A stretch of DNA of 64,000 nucleotides from an uncultured delta proteobacterium (GCA_963723235.1 CAVRPV010000020.1:19250-83249); one strand, 5' to 3'. Shown: positions 5,075-50,229, counted from the first letter of the stretch. Notes: generated by a model not told the origin, from the sequence alone. Translations and numbers: made by a program.

Positions 5075-5878
5075 CTATAAACCATAGTGTGAAAAAAGAT
5101 CCCGCGACAGGCGGCTTTCATCTGCAAAATATGCATTCGCCTTTTCCTCGGGCATCCACATTATGCGGCGGCCGTTTTCGGTATTGGCCAACACCTCCTG
5201 GACCAGAAACTGCGTTACGGTTTCAACATCATCAGCAAGCACATTGTAGACCGCCTTGGTAATTTCAAGCTGCTCAGGGGCCATCTTGCGCATGTCATCA
5301 ATAAGGAAATCGGTCAACACGATTCCGGGGCTGATTGTTCCGACCTGCACCGGACGGCCCTCAACTTCCTGCGCAACAGCCTCGCTGAAATAACGCACCC
5401 CGCGCTTTGTGGCGCCGTATACACTCAAACCATTGACCAGCATGTCATCGCTGCCGAAACCTTCAGAGTTATATACCCGGCCAAAGCCCTGGGCCAGCAT
5501 GCCCTGCAATGCAACCTGAGTTCCGTACATAACACCGGTGAGATTGGTGCTGACCACCCGGGGAATTTCACGGCTTTCAAGCTCCCACAATTGGCGCGTT
5601 GTGTTGGCAATGCCGGCGTTATTCAGCCAGATATCAACCGCTCCGAACCGATCAACAGCAGCCTGCCACAAAGCGCGCACCTGCTCAATATCGGTAACAT
5701 CGCAGGCAAAACCTGCAACTTTTTCTGATCCATACTGTTCCCGGGCCTTGAGCAATTCCTGTTCCAACTCCTGTCTGGCAAAACTGCTCAGCATGACCTG
5801 ATGGCCGCTCTTGAGAAAGTGCTGAGCCAGGCCAAGCCCAATTCCTTTTGAACTACCGGTAATAACAGCTGTTTTCAT
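5075..5878 (-). CDS. SDR-family oxidoreductase
   Basis: TGxxxGIG Rossmann motif, NNAG, and catalytic YxxxK (YGATK). Confidence 0.95.
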   Translation of the reverse strand: MKTAVITGSSKGIGLGLAQHFLKSGHQVMLSSFARQELEQELLKAREQYGSEKVAGFACDVTDIEQVRALWQAAVDRFGAVDIWLNNAGIANTTRQLWELESREIPRVVSTNLTGVMYGTQVALQGMLAQGFGRVYNSEGFGSDDMLVNGLSVYGATKRGVRYFSEAVAQEVEGRPVQVGTISPGIVLTDFLIDDMRKMAPEQLEITKAVYNVLADDVETVTQFLVQEVLANTENGRRIMWMPEEKANAYFADESRLSRDLFSHYGL

Positions 5879-6023
5879 ACATTCTCCTCACACATGCAGG
5901 GCGTATCGTGCAGAATACACTGATCTTCGTATCATATTCGCCTCTGATAAACAACCCATAAGCCCGCACAATTACAGCCATACTTCATTGACGTACGCGC
6001 TGCCTTACTCTCCATAAAACGTC

Positions 6024-6830
6024 CTATGGCGTCCAGCGCTGATATACCCGCATACCTTCTGCCCGGAACTTCTGATTCGCAATTGTAATCTGCGTTGGTG
6101 TGATCTCGCTGATGACAAAAGCTTTTTTCACTCCCTGCCTGAATGCTTTCAAGCGGGCCTCACGCTGCTCCGGCGTAGCGTCGGCTGGAACCCGGGCACC
6201 GAATTCATAGGGCAGCAACTCAATCATGATGCGTTCAAAATCAGGATCATCGCCATGAAGCAGGCGCGCGGTACCGCGTATCTGCACACACAGGAAGTCC
6301 TTAAAGGTCTCACTGTCGAACTCCTTGTGATAATTCATGCTCACTTTTGGATTGGCCTCGATATGGCGCAGTTTCTCGGTGCCGGCCTCATGAAATCCAT
6401 AGAGCTTGCCTGTTTTCGGATCAAGGGTCCATTCGCAGGTGGTCGACAGGGGCACATTGTTGAGGCTTGTGGCCAGGATGAATGTTTTTGAGTCGTGTTT
6501 CAGGCCGCCGATAGCTTTTTCAATTTCAGCCCAGACGCGCTCTTTGGACATCACGCCCTCACCCTCGCTATGGCCGGGCGACTGACCGAACAGGTAGACC
6601 TTCGTGGCGGTAGTAGTGGCGTCAAGCTTGATTTCATGGCAGTCATTGCAGCTCAGTCCCGGCTCGATCTCGGGATGTCCGCTGTCGACTTCCGCAGCCG
6701 CGACAATCGCCTGCGCCTTTGGTGTCTCCTGCGCCTGCTGCACAACCGTATCAGCCGCAAAGCGTCCGCAGCCGAAAACAGCAAAGAACAATGCACTGAT
6801 AATTAACACACTACTCGCTCTTTTTTTCAT
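6024..6830 (-). CDS. Lipoprotein with one CxxCH heme-c motif fused to a pyridoxamine-5'-phosphate-oxidase-like split-barrel domain
   Basis: Lipobox VFGC, GHP..SCNDCH, and split-barrel segments TEKLRHIEANPKVSM and VQIRGTARLL. Confidence 0.8.
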   Translation of the reverse strand: MKKRASSVLIISALFFAVFGCGRFAADTVVQQAQETPKAQAIVAAAEVDSGHPEIEPGLSCNDCHEIKLDATTTATKVYLFGQSPGHSEGEGVMSKERVWAEIEKAIGGLKHDSKTFILATSLNNVPLSTTCEWTLDPKTGKLYGFHEAGTEKLRHIEANPKVSMNYHKEFDSETFKDFLCVQIRGTARLLHGDDPDFERIMIELLPYEFGARVPADATPEQREARLKAFRQGVKKAFVISEITPTQITIANQKFRAEGMRVYQRWTP

Positions 6831-6845
6831 ACCATGCTCCTTCCC

Positions 6846-7442
6846 TTAATGCTTGATAAGACCGTCTATGATTGTTGTAATGTTCAGCCTGTGCTGTTCC
6901 TGCAAATCAAAATCCAAAGGTACGGTAAAATAGCTCAGGAAAAAACCCATCGAAAGAAAATACAGGGTGCGGGCGACTCCTTCCGGCGCAACCGGCTTAA
7001 AAATGCCTGAATCGATCCCCTCCTGAATCAGCGCGGCGATCGTAGCAACCCGATGCCTGTACATTGAGGCAACTTCATCACGGAAGTCAGGCTCCCGCGA
7101 ACTCATGGCCACAAAATCAAGACAGAAACGCAGGATCGGCTCATGTGAGAAAAATATCTCGCCTGACTTTTCCACCAGCAGGCTCAGACGTTGGGCCGCA
7201 TCAGAGCGGCTGCCAATCTCGGCGGTCAGGTACTCAAAGTAGCGGTTGACCCTATTCCTGAACAGCTCAATACCAAGCTCTTTTTTAGACTTGAAATGAT
7301 GATAAATGCCGCCTTTAGAAATGCCGGCCTGGGCGGCGATTTCATCAATGGAGGTCTGATAGTACCCGTTGCTGTTAAAACAGCTCAGCGCAGCCTCAAA
7401 GATCTCTTCGCGCCGCTGTTCCGGCGCCTTGTTGACAGCCAT
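6846..7442 (-). CDS. TetR/AcrR-family transcriptional regulator
   Basis: N-terminal HTH RREEIFEAALSCF..TSIDEIAAQAGISKGGIYHHFKSKKEL. Confidence 0.95.
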   Translation of the reverse strand: MAVNKAPEQRREEIFEAALSCFNSNGYYQTSIDEIAAQAGISKGGIYHHFKSKKELGIELFRNRVNRYFEYLTAEIGSRSDAAQRLSLLVEKSGEIFFSHEPILRFCLDFVAMSSREPDFRDEVASMYRHRVATIAALIQEGIDSGIFKPVAPEGVARTLYFLSMGFFLSYFTVPLDFDLQEQHRLNITTIIDGLIKH

Positions 7443-7444
7443 AG

Positions 7445-9122
7445 TTACACCAAATAAATTCCGACCAGTCGGTATGTATTATAGAAATTAACACTCGTCA
7501 ATACATATTTTGTCAAGCCGTACCAGTTTTTTAATACCAATAGCATCACCGCTACAGCAGCAGACTCAACGCTCCGCAACCCGTCAACTGCACTTGAAAC
7601 AATGCCGCCTGAATAGCCTGCCCCCTCGCCGACCGGAATAAGGCCGGCAATGCCGATAGCCTGAAACGTTTCCGGATCGCGCAACATGCGCACCGGCGAG
7701 GATGTGCGGGTTTCTACGCCTATCAAAATGCCCTGTTCGATAAAGCCGGGTATTTTTTTATCAAACGCAGCAAGCGCCCGGCGCAGCGGCTCAACAACAA
7801 AACCGGGCAACAGCCCGGCAAGATCAGACGCGGTCACCCCGGGCTTAAATGAAATATCCGAGACAGGAAGTGTCGTGGAGGCCTGCCCGCGCATAAAATC
7901 AGCGGCCCCCTGTACCGGTGCGTAATATGGGGAGCTGCCTGCGGTATAGGCTAGTCTTTCTATGTGCTCCTGAAATGCAAGGCCGCCCAGGACGCCCCCG
8001 TCTGTATAATCATCGGGTGTAACCGTCACCACAAGTGCGGCATTGGCACGGGCGCTGCCGCGATTTGAAAAGCTCATGCCGTTCACGCACAGCGTGCCCG
8101 GCTGTGAAGAACAACCGATAACCAGGCCTCCCGGGCACATGCAAAAACTGTACACCCCTCTGCCGGAAGCCTTGTCGGCATGTGTCAGGGCATACTCAGC
8201 TGGTCCGGCGACAAGGCGCGTATGCTCGTCGCGCCGCATACTGCGATCAATCAGAGCCTGGGGATGTTCAATGCGAACTCCCACGGCAAAACCCTTGGGC
8301 TGCAGACACATGCCCCTGCCAGAGAGCATCCGTAACGTATCACGGGCGCTGTGGCCGACGGCCAGCACAAGTAGCCCGGTTTCGATGTGCCTGCCGGAAA
8401 CTCGTATACCCTGCACCTGCCCCTTTTCAATCTCGATATCATCCATACGGGTGTTAAATCGAAACTCAACACCCTTTGTGCGTAAACGTTCAACCAGCGC
8501 CGGAATAACCTGCCGCAAGCGGTCAGTACCCACGTGCGGGCGGGCCTCATACACTATGCTTTCATCCGCCCCGCAGGCAACCAGTTCCTCAAACACCCGC
8601 TGTTTCAATGGTGAGGTACTGCGGGCAGTCAATTTCCCGTCTGAAAAGGCCCCGGCCCCGCCCTCCCCGAACACGACATTCGATTCAGGATTAAGTGTGC
8701 CGCGATTCCAGAAAGCCTGAACCTCCGCAATACGCTCAGATATCCGAGCCCCCCGTTCAATCACCAATGGGGGACATCCGCGCTCTGCAAGCCCCAGGGC
8801 CGCAAAAAGACCGGCCGGGCCGGCCCCGACCACAATAGGGCGCTGTTGAAGGCACAGGCGCGGTCCAGGCGACGGCAAGGGCTCATCCTGAAACAGGCTC
8901 ACCCTTGATTCGGAAAGCATCCGCGCCAGTTCCTGCTGATCAAGGCACACATCAGCTGCAAGGCTGTATTCGTAGAGCAGCGTGCGCTGGCGCGCGTCAA
9001 GTGAGCGGCGCAGGATACGCATGGATTTAATGCGGCTCAGCTGCAACGCCAAGCACCTGGGCAAGCGCTTCCAGCAGCGCGGGCTCATCCGTGACGCTCA
9101 GGCGCAGGCCTGTGATTTTCAA
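7445..9122 (-). CDS. FAD-dependent oxidoreductase (HI0933/YhiN-like uncharacterised dehydrogenase), with apparent indels near both ends
   Basis: VVGAGPAGLFAA, GEGGAGAFSDGKL and GEGAGYSGGIVSSAVDG. The N-terminus LKITGLRLSVTDE lies in another frame from TTG 9122. The true stop is probably the TAG at 7552-7554, since the ORF-track tail runs through the tetR promoter region. Confidence 0.85.
7459..7474. promoter_or_regulatory. Probable TetR operator palindrome
   Basis: TTCCGAC-CA-GTCGGTA, 17 nt upstream of the tetR start codon. Confidence 0.6.
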
Positions 9123-42220: not shown

Positions 42221-43159
42221 TCAATGCCCCGCAGGCGTTCGGGCGGCAAGCATCTGCCTGGCCCTGACCAGGTCGGCCAACATGCTGTTAACCGGCACGT
42301 CCACGCTCAGGGCAAGGGCCTCGCGCACGACAGCACCGTTCATATAATCAATTTCGGTTCTGCGCCCGGCGCGTATATCCTGCAGCATTGAACACAGGTT
42401 ATCCTGCGTTGCCCGGCACACGCTTTCAACGCGGGCAACCTGCTCATCAGGGTCAAAACTGATCCCTTTGGCAGCAGCGACCGCTACCCCCTCCTGAACC
42501 GCCTGGCGCATGATGCGCCGAATATGTTCGAGCTCCATGATACGCCCGTTGTTGATATTCAGAATTGCCGCCAGCGGATTTATGCCGATATTAACAAGCA
42601 GCTTGCCCCACAGCAGCGCCTGCATATCATCAACACGTCCGGTGCATATACCAGCCGATTCAAAAGCATTGAGAAGTTCAATAGCGCACGTGCGTTCCTG
42701 CGGCCGTAAAGGGGCTATCGCAGTCTCTCCGCAACCGGCATGCCGTACATGACCGGGGCCCAGCAATGTAGCGCCATGCGCGGTTGTGCCGGCCAGAACG
42801 GGCTGTTCGGGGAAATACTCCGCAAGAAACTCAACATTGCCGATACCGTTTTGCAGCGTAACAATAACCGTGTGCGGCCCGACACAACCAGCAGCGGAAA
42901 CTGCAGCCTGTGCAGTATCAAAAGCCTTTACAAAAAAAATCACATAATCGGCATAACCGATAGACGCGGCATTCCCTGTAATGGAAATACCGTCAACCGC
43001 ATGGGTACCGGTACTGTTTTCAAGCGTTATGCCATGGCGAATGATGGCCGCCACGGACGCATCATTCCTCGCAAGCAGGCATATATCCAGACCGGCCCGG
43101 CGCAACAGGGCCGCAAACAGGCATCCCATGGCCCCGGCGCCGACGAGTACGATTTTCAT
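42221..43159 (-). CDS. panE: 2-dehydropantoate 2-reductase
   Basis: VGAGAMG, VKAFD, LQNGIG, WGKLLVN and SMLQDIRAGRRTEIDYMNG. Confidence 0.95.
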   Translation of the reverse strand: MKIVLVGAGAMGCLFAALLRRAGLDICLLARNDASVAAIIRHGITLENSTGTHAVDGISITGNAASIGYADYVIFFVKAFDTAQAAVSAAGCVGPHTVIVTLQNGIGNVEFLAEYFPEQPVLAGTTAHGATLLGPGHVRHAGCGETAIAPLRPQERTCAIELLNAFESAGICTGRVDDMQALLWGKLLVNIGINPLAAILNINNGRIMELEHIRRIMRQAVQEGVAVAAAKGISFDPDEQVARVESVCRATQDNLCSMLQDIRAGRRTEIDYMNGAVVREALALSVDVPVNSMLADLVRARQMLAARTPAGH

Positions 43160-43472
43160 AAGACACCACTCTTAAAAATCCGGGCTCCTTTCACCCGCTG
43201 GCAGCCTCGAAGGTATGGCCCCGCACGGTACATCTCATCCATTTCCAGCACGGGGCTGATCGGCCTGCTGACAAACGATATCAGAAAACAATCCGCATTA
43301 CAATGCGTGTGTCGGCAAACAGTGCCACGAGCCCGTTTCCATTGGCCGTTATGACAAAAAAACGCTTGACAATCTAAGCATATAACGATACTGTTGGCGC
43401 TTTAAAATAACCACCACATCAACCCGGCTGTAGCAGATGTGTGTGCAACCCTAACTGACAGGAGACCAAACG

Positions 43473-43760
43473 TTGGCAACCAAAAGTTCAAAACAGATGA
43501 CTGCTGTTTCCAAATTGCTGGACGGGCTCATAGCCGGCGGAAAACTTCAGGCATACACCCCTGAAACAAAGCCGCTCAAACCGGTCTGGGACAAACTGAT
43601 ATGTGCCCGTTGTGCGCTGTGTTATCTCTACTGCCCTGACGCGGCGATAAGCAGGCAGGCAGACGGTTATTTTGATGCTGATCAGGACCTGTGCAAAAGC
43701 TGCGGCATCTGCCACAGGGAATGCTGGTTTGGAGCCATCAGCATGCAGGAGGTGGAATAA
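43473..43760 (+). CDS. PorD-like (2-oxoacid:ferredoxin oxidoreductase delta-type) 2[4Fe-4S] ferredoxin
   Basis: RBS AGGAG and TTG start. KPVWD..CARCALCYLYCPD and CKSCGICHRECW. Confidence 0.9.
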   Translation: MATKSSKQMTAVSKLLDGLIAGGKLQAYTPETKPLKPVWDKLICARCALCYLYCPDAAISRQADGYFDADQDLCKSCGICHRECWFGAISMQEVE

Positions 43761-44473
43761 TGGATACCTACAGCCTTTTTGCAGGACAATTCCTGCCGTT
43801 TACAGAACGCTATCTTCCGGGCGGCCACAATGCCTGTGCAGGAAGCGGCACCGCACTTGCTCTGCGTCAGGTGTATAAGGCGCTTGAGGAAAAAAACGCT
43901 GATCTGGGAAAAGCACGCTGGGATGAAACACCGGCAGGCATATTCGCACAGCAGGAAATACCCGCTGCACCAGTCCTGATAATTCCCAAATCAGGCGAAA
44001 GCATCCTCTACATCTGTTTTGATGCTGAAGCGGCCCCTAAAAAAATCAACCCGGACCTCCTTGTCAAGAAAAACCCGGCCAAGGCCGCTGCCAGCGGTTG
44101 TGCGTATGCCGCCACCGCCAGTCCCAGCCACCCGTTTGACCTGATCGAAAAGGTACGCCGCGGATGGAATGCAGCCGGTTCGGCCTATATCCACATTCTA
44201 TGCCCCTGCCCGGCATCATGGGGCTTTGATGCTGAAAACACTGTCAGAATCGCCCGTATTGCTGTTGAGGCACGCGTATTTCCTCTGTATGAAATCGCTG
44301 AAGGCCATTACAACATTACCGTTGAGGACAAAGCTCCACGCACGGTCGCAGACTATGTCCGCAGGCAGGATCGTTTTTCAACATGGAAAAAAAATCAGGT
44401 TGCAGCGTTGCAGCAGCAGACCGACGGTGCGTATGCACAATTGAAGAACAACGCCGCGCACGAAATGAACTAA
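43760..44473 (+). CDS. Degenerate PorB-like protein lacking the TPP-binding motif
   Basis: TAATG overlap with the upstream gene. GHNACAGSG, YICFD, ATASPSHPFDLIEKV, HILCPCP..W and FPLYE, but no GDG or NxxYxNTG. Confidence 0.85.
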   Translation: MDTYSLFAGQFLPFTERYLPGGHNACAGSGTALALRQVYKALEEKNADLGKARWDETPAGIFAQQEIPAAPVLIIPKSGESILYICFDAEAAPKKINPDLLVKKNPAKAAASGCAYAATASPSHPFDLIEKVRRGWNAAGSAYIHILCPCPASWGFDAENTVRIARIAVEARVFPLYEIAEGHYNITVEDKAPRTVADYVRRQDRFSTWKKNQVAALQQQTDGAYAQLKNNAAHEMN

Positions 44474-44552
44474 GCCGGGCATGCACGCCCACACGCTGTT
44501 AACAACAACGAATGTGCATCTACATACGTAGAGCACACAAAGGGAGAGTGGA

Positions 44553-45455
44553 ATGTCAGAGGTAACCTGGACGCCGGAAGGTGAAAAACTTTTTGAAAAG
44601 CTTCTCGCTGCTGTTCCGGAAGCAATGCGTGAGACTATCAAGCCAAAACTGATCCAGATGCTGGCACAGCGGGCAGGGTCCGCTGCGATAGATGAGGCCG
44701 TAATCAAAACCATGGTTCAGGAAGATCTCCCCGAACCCCAGAAAAGCGCGCTTATGATGGCCATCGGCATGCAGCCGCCACCGCCGCCACCGCAGGAAGG
44801 CCCCGCGCTTGAATGGAGCGGTAAAAGTGAAATCATGTTTGAGCTGATGCTGGGTGAGGTTCCCGAAGGCATGCGCGCAATCTTCCGCGGAAAGCTGAGC
44901 GCTGTTATAGCGCAAAAAACCCAGGGCGGCCCGGTTGTCGAGGAGCATGTCAACGCAGTGGTTAATGAAATCGTGCCCGAACCGTTCAAAAGCAACATTC
45001 TTAAAAAATTCAAAACACTGGGCGATTTTGATCCGGCCATAATAGGCGTCATTGTCGCGCGCTTCGGAACGTCCCGTGACAAGTTGATGTTCATCATGCA
45101 TGCTGTTCAGGATGAAATCGGGTATCTTCCCCGCGAGGCCATGCTTGCAATCAGCGACAAAACCGGCATCCCGGTCAGCGCAATCTACAGTGTTGCCAGC
45201 TTCTACAAGGCCTTCCGCATGGAAAAACCCGGAACGCATCATGTCAAGCTCTGTTGCGGAACAGCCTGCCACATTCACGACACGGCGAGCACCGGTGCTG
45301 CGATCGAAAACAAAATCGCCGCCAGCACCGGCGTTTCAATCGAAAAAACGCTGTGTCTTGGCTGCTGCGACTGCGCACCGGTTGTTGAGATTGACGGCAA
45401 AGTGTATAAAGGCGCCGAGGCCCAGGCAAAAATCGACTCCATAACGCTTGGATAA
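44553..45455 (+). CDS. NuoE/HydC-like [2Fe-2S] subunit with a tandemly duplicated N-terminal helical domain
   Basis: QDEIGYLP, VASFY, CCGTAC and CLGCCDCAP. Two N-terminal W..E....F...L..VPE.MR repeats are joined by QPPPPPPQ. Confidence 0.9.
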   Translation: MSEVTWTPEGEKLFEKLLAAVPEAMRETIKPKLIQMLAQRAGSAAIDEAVIKTMVQEDLPEPQKSALMMAIGMQPPPPPPQEGPALEWSGKSEIMFELMLGEVPEGMRAIFRGKLSAVIAQKTQGGPVVEEHVNAVVNEIVPEPFKSNILKKFKTLGDFDPAIIGVIVARFGTSRDKLMFIMHAVQDEIGYLPREAMLAISDKTGIPVSAIYSVASFYKAFRMEKPGTHHVKLCCGTACHIHDTASTGAAIENKIAASTGVSIEKTLCLGCCDCAPVVEIDGKVYKGAEAQAKIDSITLG

Positions 45456-45491
45456 GCATCAAACGGTTTTTAACGAACGGGGATTATTACC

Positions 45492-47186
45492 ATGAAGCTT
45501 ACATGTGCAGAAGACCTTTCCAAATTAAAAAAACAGGGCAATACGCGCCTGTTCAGCGGCAAAATTCGCGTTAATGTCGGAACATCCACCTGCTGCCTGG
45601 CAAAGGGCGCAGAGCTGACCTACAATGCGCTTGCCTACGGTATGAAATCCCGGAACATCGACGCCGAACTGGTGAAAGTCGGCTGTAACGGCATGTGCTG
45701 GGCTGAACCCGTTGTAGAGATTCACCAGCCCGGAAAAGCCAAAATCATCTATGGCAAGGTAACGGAAAATGAAGTCCCGCGCCTGTTGGATGCGCTTGCA
45801 TCCGGCGACGTCATCGCAGACCTGGCCATCGCCCGCATAGACACTGAAGACCATGTTCTGGTCGGCAGCATTGACTATGCCACGGACGGCACCGCCCTTA
45901 CAGGCAAACACATTGCAAAACTCGAAGAAACCGACTTTGGAAAGCTGCAGCACAAGGTCATCCTGCGCAATGCCGGAGCCATTGATCCTGAAAATATTGA
46001 TGAATACATCGCCCGCGGCGGCTACGCTGCGCTTGCAACGGCCCTGGGCATGAAGCCTGCAAAAATTGTGCAGGAAGTCATTGACTCCGGCCTGCGCGGA
46101 CGCGGAGGCGCAGGTTTTCCCGCCGGCATCAAATGGCGCATGTGCCGTGAAGCTGCCGGAGACGTGAAATATCTCATCTGCAACGTCAGTGAAGGCGAGC
46201 CCGGCATCGGCATGCACCGCAGCTTTCTTGAATCAGACCCGCATGCGGTTGTGGAAGGCCTTATAATCGGCGGCTTTGCAATCGGCGCGCAGACGGCCTA
46301 CATGTACGTAAGAGACAACTACCGGGTTGCCCTGCAGCGCATTACAAAAGCCGTGCAGGATGCTACTGAATCCGGACTGCTCGGAGAGAACATTCTCGGC
46401 TCCGGGTACTCCATGAATATTATCGTCAAAGAAGGCGGCGGCCGCTATGTCTGCGGTGAAGAAACCGCGCTGCTCTCCTGCATTGAAGGCAAACTCGGCG
46501 AACCGCGCCAGCGTCCGCCCTTCCCCACCAACAGCGGCCTGTTCGGTAAGCCGACCTGTATCAACAATGTTGAAACCTGGGCAAATATCCCGGTCATCAT
46601 TCAAAAAGGCAGTTCCTGGTTCAGCGCCATCGGCTCAGAAAAAAGCAAGGGGACAAAAGTTCTGTCCCTGGCCGGTAATATCAGCAGGGCCGGTATGATC
46701 GAAGTTGCCATGGGCACGAAGATCAGCCAGATCATCAAGGTCATCGGCGGCGGTATCCCCGGAGGCAAAAAGCTCAAAGGCATACAGCCCGGCGGGCCCT
46801 CAGGCGGTGTGCTGCCTGCCTCCATGGACAAGCTCACTATCGACTACGATGAGTTGGCCGGAGCAGGTTCAATGCTCGGCTCGGGCGGCATGGTCATCAT
46901 GGATGACAGCAACGACATGGTTAAACTTGCCCGCTATTTTACAGACTTTTTTGTCAACGAGTCCTGCGGCAAATGCGTCCCCTGCCGTGAAGGTGTCTGC
47001 CGCGTGCGCGACATGCTTGATGAACTTATCAGCGGCCGGGCCGACAAGTCTATGCTGAAAACCTTTACTGCCATGGCGGATCCGATCACCAAGGCCTGCG
47101 CCTGCGCGCTGGGCAAAACCGCCATGGTGCCGGTAACATCAACCATGAAACATTTCCGCCACGATTACGACGCCTATTTGCAATAG
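45492..47186 (+). CDS. NuoF/HydB-like FMN/NADH-binding flavoprotein with an N-terminal thioredoxin-like [2Fe-2S] domain
   Basis: TCC..VGCNGMC, GLRGRGGAGFP, EGEPG, CGEETAL, NNVET, GGPSGG and ESCGKCVPC...CALG. Confidence 0.93.
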   Translation: MKLTCAEDLSKLKKQGNTRLFSGKIRVNVGTSTCCLAKGAELTYNALAYGMKSRNIDAELVKVGCNGMCWAEPVVEIHQPGKAKIIYGKVTENEVPRLLDALASGDVIADLAIARIDTEDHVLVGSIDYATDGTALTGKHIAKLEETDFGKLQHKVILRNAGAIDPENIDEYIARGGYAALATALGMKPAKIVQEVIDSGLRGRGGAGFPAGIKWRMCREAAGDVKYLICNVSEGEPGIGMHRSFLESDPHAVVEGLIIGGFAIGAQTAYMYVRDNYRVALQRITKAVQDATESGLLGENILGSGYSMNIIVKEGGGRYVCGEETALLSCIEGKLGEPRQRPPFPTNSGLFGKPTCINNVETWANIPVIIQKGSSWFSAIGSEKSKGTKVLSLAGNISRAGMIEVAMGTKISQIIKVIGGGIPGGKKLKGIQPGGPSGGVLPASMDKLTIDYDELAGAGSMLGSGGMVIMDDSNDMVKLARYFTDFFVNESCGKCVPCREGVCRVRDMLDELISGRADKSMLKTFTAMADPITKACACALGKTAMVPVTSTMKHFRHDYDAYLQ

Positions 47187-47217
47187 GCCGCAAACAGCAA
47201 CTCTTAATGCAGCACTC

Positions 47218-47259
47218 AAAAAAAGGTTTTCCGCACGCATACTGCGGGAAACCTTTTTT
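47218..47259 (+). terminator. Intrinsic terminator closing the redox operon
   Basis: AAAAAGGTTTTCCGCA-loop-TGCGGGAAACCTTTTTT. Confidence 0.88.
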
Positions 47260-47363: not shown

Positions 47364-47445
47364 CCGTCCGTTCGCCCGAGCTGTCGAAGGGTGAACGGAC
47401 GGGTTTAATACTGAAACCCGTTCATGGTTCGACTGACTCACCGCA
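47364..47445. repeat. REP-like palindromic cluster
   Basis: CCGTCCGTTCGCCC-N11-GGGTGAACGGACGG, then the hairpin CGGGTTT-N7-AAACCCG, then CCGTTCATGGTTCGACTGACTCACC. Confidence 0.6.
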
Positions 47446-47628
47446 AACAGCACACCAATGGAACAGAAAAAAAGCACAGCTTAGCAATGGCCCGGCTGCA
47501 ATTAACCTGTTGCTGTCTGGAGATAATTTTGATAAACAGATGCAACAACATGTCAATCCAGGTTCGACAGCAATCGCGTAAAATAATTTCCAACACATTT
47601 CAGGTTTCTTTTGTCGCGGAATCAGATC

Positions 47629-48680
47629 ATGCAAAACTGCCACTCCTCCATTTGATGCCACCAAGAAACCAAGACTTGTATGGATTGATATCGCCAAGGC
47701 AATCGGACTTTTTTTCATCATCATCGGACACCTTACAATCAATAAATACAATGGCAGCTAAATACATTTACTGGTTTCATGTCCCGTTTTTCTTCCTTAT
47801 CAGCGGGTTGCTCCATTCATCAGCCCAAAAGATCCCGAGGTTCATTGCTGCCCGATTCAAGCACCTGATGGTTCCCTACTGCGTACTGGTCTGCTGCGCC
47901 CTGATCATGATCGTGACAGGCCTGTACTGGACAGCTGTCGGTAAAAAACCTGCTGCTGGGCGGTCAATTCCTGCGTGACACTGCCTGCTGGAAATGGTGG
48001 TTTATACCCTGCCTTTTTTTTACACAAATTGCCGGCAGTTTTATTATAAAAACAGGCAGGCGAAGATTTGTGCTCTATGCCGCCCTCCTCTGCTATTATG
48101 CTGCGGAAATGCTGCAAATAACAAATACCGTGTTTATGTGGGGGTGTCCCGTTTGTTATATTGAAACTGCCGCTTGCGCTCGAAATTGTCCCCATGGCGC
48201 TTGTATTCTATTGTGCGGGATTTCTCTTGAGGGCCCGGTTCTTATCCGAAGACCATCTGCCGCTGCCGGTCACCATGCTCTTGGCCTGCGCAGTAACTGT
48301 GACCATACTGTTAGACTGGTATAATATAGTTCATGTGCCTTACTATTTTATGATGAGTGCCAGGAATATGGCCTCCCTCTTTTCAATATAATCATACCCC
48401 TTATCTTTTTTTCTTGATACGGGAGCTCTCAATAACGCTCGCGCGGTTCAACCCTGTAAAAAAAATACTTTCATCTATCGGACGGGCTGCGCTGCCGATT
48501 ATGTTTTTACACCTTATCCTTTCTGAATATGCCTTAAGCATTTTACCCAAGTTTGCCGATTTAAATAGCGGCAATCTCATTGTCCGGGCGCTATTATGCG
48601 TCCTGCTGCCCTGGGGGCTCTATTATCTGCTGAAAAAAAATCAGCTGCTTAAAAAACTGGTTTTGGGTGAGTGGCATTAA
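47629..48680 (+). pseudogene. Acyltransferase-3 (OafA-like) membrane protein with five or more frameshifts
   Basis: Successive frames give RLVWIDIAKAIG..IIGH, YWFHVPFFFLISG, RFKHLMVPY, WWFIPCLF, and SIGRAALPIMFLH. Confidence 0.75.
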
Positions 48681-48742
48681 AAGGTTCTCTGATAGTCAGT
48701 TGCTTTGAATGGCGGCAGGTAAATCGTATTGGGATATATAAC

Positions 48743-50229
48743 ATGAGAAACGCGCACGCCCCTTCACGAAGAGACTATACCATCCTGTTTGCCCTGTTTT
48801 TTATCACCTATGCCTATTTTTTCCAGGGCGGGGGCTGGAATCAAAATACCAAGGTCTGCCTGATGCGGGCCATGATTCACCAGCAGAGTTTTATCATTGA
48901 CCATTACCGCGAAGACGCAACCAACCCCTATTTTAAATTTGTCAACACCGGCGACTGGTCATACCGCGATGGTCATTATTATACCAACAAGTCTCCCGGC
49001 CTTTCTTTCATGGCTGCCGCCCCGTTTGCGGTCTCAGAATTCATCCTCAAAAAAGCACTGCCCGGAAATGAAGAACGGCAGATCCTGCTCAGCACATACA
49101 TCGCAAATCTCTTTTCAAACAGCCTGCCGGCCGCACTGCTGTGCCTGATGCTGTTTTACGCCGGTAGCGTTTGTTTCGCACTCACAAGGAACCAGGCTCT
49201 GCTGTTGAGCCTGTCTTTCGGGTTTGGAACACTGATTTTTCCCTACAGTACCGTGTTTTACAGCCATGTCCCGGCAGCGGCCCTTTCATTTTTCCCTTTT
49301 CTCTATGCAATGGCCCTCAGGAATACCGCAATCCAGCCACAAAAAAAGACTGCCCTCGTTGCAGGGTGTGCAGCCATGCTGGCTGTTGTGGTCGAGCCGT
49401 CAACAATAATAATGCTGTGCTGCGTGGGCATGTATCTGCTGTCCTTCCGGAACGGCAGGCGCCATATACTCTATTTCGCGGCCGGTTGTATCCCGGCAGC
49501 AGCGCTGCAGCTTTTTATAACAGTGTATGTTTTGGCGGACCCCTTCAGTCAGGATACGCGTTTGCAAACCCTGACGTAATGATCTACGTCAACGGCCGGC
49601 TCTTTGGACGGCCGGGGATAAAAGATTTTATCGGCCTGCTTTTCCTGCCGCACCGGGGCCTTTTTATTAGTTCTCCAATATTGGTATTTGCAATTCCGGG
49701 AGCCATTCTTTTTTTTAAGGAACGCCCCATACTGCGGGATGCTTTCACCTGCCTGCTCATCTCAGCCGGATTTCTTGTATTTATTGCGAGCTTCTATTCA
49801 TGGGACGGGGGCTGGACGCCCGGTCCGCGCTACCTGCTGCCTGCCTTCCCTTTTGCGTTTGTATTGACGGTGCCGATGCTGAAAAAGTTCCCTAAAGCCT
49901 TTGTGTGCGCTGGACTCATTTCTATTGTGATCAATCTTTCAATAACCCTGGTTGCCACGGAGATCCCCCGTGAGCTTCGCAATCCGCTTGTTGATATCAT
50001 ATTTCCAAGCATTGCCGAGGGTAAAGTCTCAATCAACCCGGTTCCCGTCTCGCATTTCAATAACTATCCGGGGATATATGAGCTGCGGGAGCCAAAGAAC
50101 TGGACTCCGAACTTTAACTCATTTAATATGGGCGAACTGCTGTTCCCTCACCATCCGGCAAGCATCCTGCCGCTGCTTGGCTTCTGGCTTGTCTGCGGCT
50201 GGCTATGGCGACGGACAGCAAAACAATAA
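48743..50229 (+). CDS. GT-C-fold membrane glycosyltransferase-like protein, one frameshift near 49515
   Basis: GDWSYRDGHYYTNKSPGLSF, PYSTVFYSH, RGLFISSP and WDGGWTPGPRYLLP. Confidence 0.8.

Follow-up and report, generated by a model that had tools for sequence, protein, structure and literature searches.

A conserved four-gene operon of uncultured Thermodesulfobacteriota encodes the probable subunits of a reduced, Por-Bfu-related NAD(H)-linked flavin/Fe-S complex

The window analysed here is a 64,000-nt stretch of DNA from an uncultured delta proteobacterium (GCA_963723235.1 CAVRPV010000020.1:19250-83249), and coordinates are positions within it unless a contig is named. Its subject is an operon of four same-strand genes, PorD', PorB', NuoE* and NuoF', whose frames are unbroken according to the list of open reading frames (ORFs) and the domain scans. 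PorD' and PorB' derive from subunits of 2-oxoacid:ferredoxin oxidoreductases (OFORs), and PorB' lacks the thiamine pyrophosphate (TPP) site; NuoE* and NuoF' are related to the BfuC and BfuB subunits of electron-bifurcating enzymes, NuoF' having a flavin mononucleotide (FMN) site. The locus is laid out as follows.

42221-43159, minus strand: panE/ApbA-family 2-dehydropantoate 2-reductase (TIGR00745, 275 bits, cut-off 141), included here as a neighbour and not as a demonstrated member of the system
43160-43472, no strand: divergent intergenic (promoter) region, from direct reading of the sequence
43473-43760, plus strand: PorD', 95 aa, delta-subunit-type ferredoxin, predicted 2x[4Fe-4S] (TIGR02179)
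43760-44473, plus strand: PorB', 237 aa, OFOR beta-subunit derivative without a TPP site (PorB models and AlphaFold2 (AF2) fold)
44553-45455, plus strand: NuoE*/BfuC*, 300 aa, two N-terminal four-helix repeats and a thioredoxin-like [2Fe-2S] (C1) domain (PF01257)
45492-47186, plus strand: NuoF'/BfuB', 564 aa, thioredoxin-like N-terminal part, FMN/NAD(H) site and N3 (B1) [4Fe-4S] (Pfam)
47221-47259, plus strand: intrinsic terminator hairpin, fold energy -30.7 kcal/mol

An AGGAG ribosome-binding site lies 8 nt ahead of the TTG start of PorD', and the stop of this gene overlaps by 1 nt (TAATG) the start of PorB', which is the ATG at 43760 and not the GTG at 43691. None of 200 shuffled sequences was as stable as the terminator hairpin (z = -5.0), which is possibly bidirectional because A and T runs flank it. 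A consensus scan called no sigma-70 promoter at the operon; the same scan also missed the true terminator. The initial annotation had described four co-oriented, intact genes between a divergent panE gene and a strong terminator, and the ORFs, domain scans and hairpin statistics agree with it.

Through electron bifurcation, BfuABC enzymes link the redox reactions of NAD(H), ferredoxin and a third substrate. Por-Bfu (Por-BfuA-G) is a predicted, biochemically uncharacterised member of their type 2, whose POR part is expected to have four subunits and to bind TPP (Schut et al. 2022, PMC9304861). NuoF' contains the domains PF01512, PF10531 (SLBB) and PF10589 (N3), the last of which ends at residue 561 of 564. 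No C-terminal Fer4 domain was found in it with Pfam, the B3/B4 arm (2x[4Fe-4S]) is absent, and the C-terminus falls 69-70 residues short of the ends of Por-Bfu and GGR2-type BfuB proteins (GGR, geranylgeranyl reductase), in line with the early remark that this HydB-like protein stops right after N3 without a C-terminal 2[4Fe-4S] domain. Its matches in the PDB are led by the BfuB subunits of bifurcating enzymes (NfnB 9n5u_B, 529 bits; 7t2r_B, 502; HydB 7q4v_B, 494), as against 398 bits for FdsB and 336 bits for Nqo1 among non-bifurcating proteins, and the alignments halt where the C-terminal ferredoxin domain starts. The GRGGAGFP glycine loop, CGEETAL and the B1 cysteines (ESCGKCxPCREG...CALGKT) are intact. 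The FMN loop has the derived form NVSEGEPGIGMHR: NADEGDPGA(Y/F)MDR is replaced by N(V/G)SEG(E/D)PxIGMHR throughout the clade of BfuB proteins without the C-terminal domain (CTD), and in NuoF' the Bfu-type GA(F/Y)MDR keeps its Met and reads GIGMHR, with NADE changed to NVSE.

The thioredoxin-like [2Fe-2S] domain of NuoE* (PF01257, E = 2e-30) spans residues 167-291 and is preceded by two four-helix repeats of ~70 aa each, at about residues 1-70 and 88-157. Its C1 ligands C234, C239, C268 and C272 are invariant in 11 sequences, and the AF2 model, with a predicted local distance difference test (pLDDT) score of 80, finds StnA 8oh5_A and HydC 7p5h_C as best PDB matches. We rejected an assignment of the repeats to PCP_red (E = 0.039; 14 bits against a cut-off of 32.5); a fold search with the whole model gave NuoE/HydC-type chains only.

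Subunits of this kind could also be a detached N module, belonging to an 11-subunit Nuo complex without nuoEFG, with PorD'/PorB' taking the place of NuoG. The genome does hold a NuoD-like gene with no adjacent nuoF (contig C19), and its only three Complex1_51K matches lie on contigs C6, C7 and C20. However, NuoF' is much nearer to BfuB (529 bits with NfnB) than to Nqo1/NuoF (336 bits), and two near-complete relatives (G232 and G074) carry the four-gene operon but no NuoD. This phyletic mismatch led us to set the idea aside as very improbable.

PorD' scores 67.5 bits against the PorD_KorD model TIGR02179 (cut-off 60.05) and has two complete CxxCxxCxxxC motifs, CARCALCYLYCP and CKSCGICHRECW, so that the free PorD-like 2[4Fe-4S] protein noticed at the start of the operon is indeed there. 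PorB' is a more altered protein. It matches PorB/OorB models over its C-terminal ~130 residues only (1e-36), far under the equivalog cut-offs, and has no match to Pfam TPP_enzyme_C (PF02775), for which the Por-Bfu PorB of locus L091 gives 64.9 bits. Its AF2 model (pLDDT 86) finds as best PDB matches the beta subunits of oxalate oxidoreductase (5exe_C, E = 4e-12) and of pyruvate:ferredoxin oxidoreductase (PFOR; 9bt4_C), superimposing on the latter with a root-mean-square deviation of 1.5 Å across 130 columns; the OFOR beta fold is retained in the model. The alignment shows that a deletion takes out the third cluster cysteine ("ATGC") together with the GDG...NN diphosphate motif, and because this segment is deleted PorB' should be unable to bind TPP. 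Docking on a 2-oxoacid oxidoreductase encoded elsewhere, which the initial annotation had allowed for, is unlikely for the same reason, and because the genome has no four-subunit-type PorB elsewhere. Of the canonical cluster cysteines, C26 and C150 are retained, one is deleted and one is Ser in this genus; C148, within CPCP, is a new conserved cysteine, and C26, C86, C148 and C150 are kept in 97-99% of the family. PorB' plausibly still holds one [4Fe-4S] cluster and is probably an adaptor or electron wire.

The N-terminus of PorB' ties it to Por-Bfu. The motif MDxYS(V/L)(Y/F)xPxLLxxxExF (residues 1-21, window 43760-43822) is common to the PorB of Por-Bfu and to all TPP-less PorB' proteins, being seen in the PorB N-termini of loci L085-L099 and L102-L113, and it is missing in the PorB of ordinary POR operons that are not Bfu-linked (a small sample, n=4); the shared motif argues for common descent of PorB' and the Por-Bfu PorB. 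The segment is highly conserved yet has a pLDDT below 50 in the model, a pattern typical of docking peptides, which suggests that it is a candidate for one. The PorB' family is narrow: its relatives fall into 70 clusters at 90% identity, nearly all of 237-259 aa, and a profile search of 1.84 billion representatives gave only ~9 short full-length clusters at 50% identity.

Orthologous loci were gathered from contig look-ups, a genome-contig scan and 401 genomes sampled from the phylum. The order PorD'-PorB'-NuoE-NuoF, for which a synteny search had been proposed at the outset, was recovered at 15 distinct loci of uncultured Thermodesulfobacteriota from at least two families, an arrangement far beyond chance. 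The 15 distinct sequences of this four-gene type (W) are monophyletic (100/100) in the maximum-likelihood NuoF/BfuB tree. Ratios of nonsynonymous to synonymous substitution rates (dN/dS), computed against two same-genus orthologues, are 0.16-0.18 for PorD', 0.08 for PorB', 0.06-0.07 for NuoE* and 0.11 for NuoF', next to 0.12 for the adjoining housekeeping gene RlmL; all four operon genes are under purifying selection. The marks of a deletion remnant named in the initial annotation, namely orthologues with porA/porC or hydA and dN/dS near 1, are both missing: none of the orthologous operons contains these genes and the ratios stay within 0.06-0.18, so that the operon is not a recent deletion remnant. 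A functionless, decaying leftover of a Por-Bfu or GGR-linked operon might still be read from the absence of the catalytic parts from the operon and from the frame breaks in several genes outside it in this metagenome-assembled genome (MAG; 2.8 Mb, 83% complete). The four intact frames, the low dN/dS, the conserved cofactor ligands and the 15 orthologous operons speak against decay; the selection and conservation data effectively refute it, and we give it next to no credence. The early proposal that parts of a 2-oxoacid oxidoreductase had been kept without catalysis beside a NuoEF/HydBC-type module is instead borne out, the TPP segment and third cluster cysteine being deleted in genes that remain under purifying selection.

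Related operons in the phylum place the four-gene form within a series of types.

Por-Bfu proper: PorG-PorD-PorA-PorB(TPP)-BfuC-BfuB(+CTD)-BfuA, e.g. L091
GGR-flanked type: TPP-less 302-aa PorB, full BfuB, BfuA
Six-gene type: PorD-PorB'(228 aa)-NuoE*-NuoF(no CTD)-BfuA'(312 aa, extra C-terminal dicluster domain)-GGR-like flavoprotein
Five-gene type: the six-gene set minus the GGR gene
Four-gene type: the PorD'-PorB'-NuoE*-NuoF' operon of the window

Por-Bfu is widespread, 8 of the 12 additional full-length (TPP-type) PorB loci that we checked sitting in such operons. The three CTD-less types form one clade (100/99), all with the derived FMN loop, and on sequence grounds the four-gene operon is the most reduced member of a Por-Bfu-related lineage. 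Two loci, L112 (G301:C57) and L113 (G326:C1), combine PorG-D-A-B with a TPP site, a BfuB of 562-565 aa without the C-terminal 2x[4Fe-4S] arm and a BfuA of ordinary 241-aa length with no extra domain. We rejected this CTD-less Por-Bfu as the ancestor of the four-gene type: it is nested inside Por-Bfu, so its arm was lost independently, and that loss suggests that B3/B4 is dispensable when PorD is present. At a contig end, L070 (G289:C16:1-3400) has a short PorB' (246 aa) beside NuoE and BfuB pieces that retain the ferredoxin arm, with frames that seem broken. On the metagenome contigs of the five-gene loci L004/L005, the opposite strand 3' of the operon (5173-8607) encodes a CxxCxxCC protein, a radical-SAM/SPASM protein and AFOR, an aldehyde:ferredoxin oxidoreductase.

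The genome of the window itself carries a member of the six-gene type.

G000:C6:285344-291626, minus strand, outside the window: six-gene paralogue of the operon

It encodes PorD (93 aa), PorB' (228 aa), a 305-aa NuoE* with two repeats, a 661-aa NuoF* that has an additional repeat at its N-terminus and lacks the C-terminal Fer4, a 312-aa HoxU-like BfuA' with a dicluster added at its C-terminus, and a 446-aa flavoprotein of the GGR family. Its subunits are 44-50% identical to those of the window operon. The four-/five-gene type and the six-gene type occur together in 13 of 13 sampled genomes, neither being found alone. This co-occurrence, and the presence of at least six GGR-like paralogues in the genome, would fit a reading in which the window operon encodes an alternative NADH-input module. 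The module would borrow BfuA' and the GGR-like flavoprotein, the catalytic subunits encoded by the six-gene operon, or would work with one of several orphan GGR-like reductases, the resulting enzyme being an NADH(+Fd)-dependent double-bond reductase isoform (Fd, ferredoxin). We regard it as doubtful. At 44-50% identity the paralogues are old enough for their interfaces to have diverged, their joint presence may reflect shared ancestry inside one class, and the four-gene lineage has a BfuA' paralogue of its own, described below. The four-gene operon has no GGR lineage that shares its distribution: the nearest extra paralogue, on contig C11, has orthologues in only 5 of 11 genomes, sits in an HdrCB-like/cytochrome context of its own and has broken frames in this MAG, and we discarded it as a dedicated partner.

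At least seven further GGR-family flavoprotein paralogues are present in the same genome (C11:6420-7740, C11:13706-15037, C10:23105-24329, C10:209195-210343, C14:51720-52992, C17:246125-247440 and C20:13465-14802). One of them lies ~5 kb ahead of the window start, and the C11 copy adjoins HdrC/HdrB-like (CCG) proteins and a c-type cytochrome.

The absence of any catalytic or NuoG-type gene, on which the initial annotation had laid weight, stands for the operon and its 107-kb contig (C20): no PorA, PorG or NuoG/HydA-like gene was found anywhere on that contig, and the POR_N and POR domains have no match in the operon or on C20. It does not stand for the genome, which has a BfuA' paralogue at another locus.

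G000:C6:213651-214604, minus strand, outside the window: orphan HoxU/BfuA'-like gene, 317 aa

The product is 49% identical to the BfuA' of the six-gene paralogue and matches it in architecture, extra dicluster domain included. Each of the 11 genomes that carry the four-gene operon has an orthologue (66-89% identity), and none was found in two five-gene-type genomes or in a class member without any such operon. The orthologues form a clade of their own (100/100), whose internal branching parallels that of the operon. Because the orphan BfuA' tracks the operon, and the subunit is encoded in cis in the other types, "no NuoG" is true of the operon and probably not of the complex: the NuoG-N-terminal-like subunit has probably been relocated, not lost. 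Beside the orphan gene lies a conserved divergent gene for a 209-aa protein with no Pfam match.

Much as in the first option of the initial annotation, the four products of the operon might form a stand-alone, non-bifurcating NADH:ferredoxin (or ferredoxin:NAD+) oxidoreductase, in which PorD'/PorB' replace both BfuA and the B3/B4 arm as a single exit wire. The operon is self-contained from promoter region to terminator, with panE and a sigma-70 gene as its only conserved neighbours, and it has no co-distributed GGR lineage (5/11 genomes). PorD is, moreover, the natural ferredoxin-interacting subunit of OFORs (PFOR family), and the Por-Bfu of L112/L113 likewise does without the BfuB arm and without an extra BfuA domain. 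Against these points stand the orphan BfuA' in 11/11 genomes and its counterparts in cis in the sister lineages, and uncoupled NADH-driven ferredoxin reduction is endergonic. Rnf is present in 7 of 21 relatives, one of them of the same genus, which leaves a soluble Fd:NAD+ enzyme without an evident purpose, and we dropped the absence of Rnf as an argument for such a role. Taken together, we consider a stand-alone enzyme unlikely.

The gene content, cofactor motifs, purifying selection, phylogenetic placement and co-distribution with the orphan BfuA' are observed, whereas physical assembly of the subunits, the direction of electron flow, any bifurcation and the nature of the acceptor or partner are matters of inference. 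On balance, we favor a model in which the four operon products belong to a soluble flavin/Fe-S complex that is linked to NAD(H), comes from the same stock as Por-Bfu and is completed by the BfuA' encoded in trans. In this model, NuoF' and NuoE* would form a BfuBC-type core with FMN, the B1/N3 [4Fe-4S] and the C1 [2Fe-2S], the ferredoxin arm of BfuB (B3/B4) having been lost. PorD' (2x[4Fe-4S]) and the TPP-less PorB' (probably 1x[4Fe-4S]) would act as a three-cluster electron wire and docking adaptor, and the fifth subunit would most likely be the HoxU-like BfuA' with its extra C-terminal 2x[4Fe-4S] domain. NADH would be oxidized, or NAD+ reduced, at the FMN, and electrons would pass through Fe-S chains to ferredoxin and/or to a partner docked at the former PorA/TPP position. 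There would be two Fe-S exits, one through BfuA' (the A clusters and the extra dicluster) and one through the PorB'/PorD' wire. One of them may stand in for the lost B3/B4 ferredoxin site, and the other may lead to the face once occupied by TPP/PorA, where a partner could dock; for the six-gene paralogue, that docked partner is presumably the GGR-like flavoprotein.

Several observations weigh against this five-subunit model or its proposed descent. Position 29 of PorB', the second cysteine of CxGCG in other aligned members, is Ser in this genus, which makes the PorB' cluster uncertain here. The derived FMN loop (D->S, A->I, Y/F->G, D->H) may alter nucleotide or flavin chemistry. The orphan BfuA' has housekeeping genes as neighbours (gatCA, amidase, type II secretion), the three-way branching order in the BfuA' tree, (WA,(C6,orphan)), differs from that in the BfuB tree, (W,(WA,C6)), and one genome (G108) has an additional extended BfuA'; the orphan could serve something else. 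Lastly, the root of the BfuB tree is unresolved, its only outgroup being a long branch, so the tree leaves descent from Por-Bfu unproven, and it is the shared PorD/PorB content and the N-terminal motif that suggest it.

A more ambitious version of the model, which we hold only tentatively and at low confidence, would make the four-gene operon with its trans-encoded BfuA' a new architectural class of bifurcating enzyme. The ferredoxin arm would have shifted from BfuB to the C-terminus of BfuA', the thiamine-less beta/delta pair would be a universal plug, and the TPP/PorA face would dock exchangeable reductases, for example GGR-like flavoproteins. If this were true, one NADH/ferredoxin module would serve several catalytic partners.

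The surroundings of the operon add little to this picture. The panE gene is the divergent neighbour at 10 of 14 four-gene (W-type) loci, all in one family, and evolves faster than the operon genes (dN/dS 0.22-0.25). We rejected it as a functional partner on account of this restricted conservation and faster evolution, and as an NAD(P)H enzyme that needs no Fe-S. Downstream, the sole conserved neighbour is a sigma-70 gene, found at 8 of 14 loci and absent there in this genus. Just past the terminator (window 47424-50229) lie an Acyl_transf_3 acyltransferase and a large membrane protein split across several overlapping frames, which are either pseudogenes or assembly frameshifts; comparable frame breaks affect a HydA-like gene and PFOR on contig C7 and the GGR paralogue on C11.

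Among electron-bifurcating enzymes the Bfu class is the one understood least, and current models treat the B3/B4 arm of BfuB as the obligatory ferredoxin route and BfuA as the obligatory entry of the third substrate. The lineage described here is conserved and under selection, has kept the [B1-FMN-C1] core without the arm, includes two POR pseudo-enzyme remnants and has its BfuA at another locus. It could serve as a minimal natural system for asking which clusters bifurcation needs, how modules are swapped and how a subunit of a TPP enzyme is recycled as an Fe-S adaptor. It is also an unannotated redox system of widespread freshwater/sediment Thermodesulfobacteriota, whose proteins receive the misleading labels "pyruvate ferredoxin oxidoreductase beta subunit" and "NuoF" in standard annotation.

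Por-Bfu is among the closest known systems. It shares with the window operon the PorD-...-PorB-BfuC-BfuB order, the BfuBC core (FMN, B1, C1), the PorD dicluster ferredoxin and the PorB N-terminal motif, and true Por-Bfu operons with PorA and PorG (L091) were verified in the same phylum. Unlike Por-Bfu, the window operon has no PorA/PorG, its PorB' lacks the TPP segment and one canonical cluster cysteine, its BfuB has a derived FMN loop and no B3/B4 arm, its BfuC has two extra helical repeats, and BfuA lies outside it as an extended paralogue elsewhere. The bifurcating Bfu structures, that is NfnABC (9n5u, 9bp5), HydABC (7p5h, 7q4v, 8a6t) and NiFe-HydABCSL (7t2r), give the best sequence matches to NuoF' (465-529 bits) and the best fold matches to NuoE*, and all ligands of their [B1-FMN-C1] "flavobicluster" are present in the window proteins; the operon differs in having no ferredoxin-reducing CTD (B3/B4), adjacent B2/Zn linker or catalytic BfuA domain. 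The B3/B4 ferredoxin site has been described for NfnABC (PMC11829005), and BfuA ([2Fe-2S] + [4Fe-4S]) is lacking only in rare "type 4" BfuABC enzymes (Schut et al. 2022, PMC9304861). The non-bifurcating NuoEF-type modules, namely FdsBG of NAD-dependent formate dehydrogenase (6vw7, 6tg9), HoxEFU and the S. wolfei NADH-dependent HydABC, also have a BfuB homologue without the C-terminal ferredoxin domain, and a HoxU-like small Fe-S subunit as likely connector, but none has PorD/PorB-derived subunits and their similarity to NuoF' is clearly lower than that of bifurcating BfuB proteins (FdsB 398, Nqo1 336 bits). The complex I N-module (NuoEFG) includes NuoG, which the window operon lacks, and is joined to a membrane complex with NuoB/D; two operon-bearing relatives have no NuoD. 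The GGR-linked PorDB'-NuoEF(G) operons share PorD', a short TPP-less PorB', NuoE* with repeats, a CTD-less NuoF and the same derived FMN loop and form sister clades in the BfuB tree, whereas the window operon has neither BfuA' nor a GGR-like flavoprotein in cis.

The early statement that no described complex of this composition was known agrees with our literature search. Por-Bfu itself came up there only in Schut et al. 2022 and one 2025 paper, and forms lacking TPP, the arm or BfuA were not described in what we found. NuoF'-like proteins would have gone uncounted in the BfuB census because it demanded the ferredoxin domain IPR017896 (Schut et al. 2022, PMC9304861). The operon is, however, not an isolated invention: as a relative of the predicted Por-Bfu, the four-gene form is new within the Bfu family and not a categorically new system.

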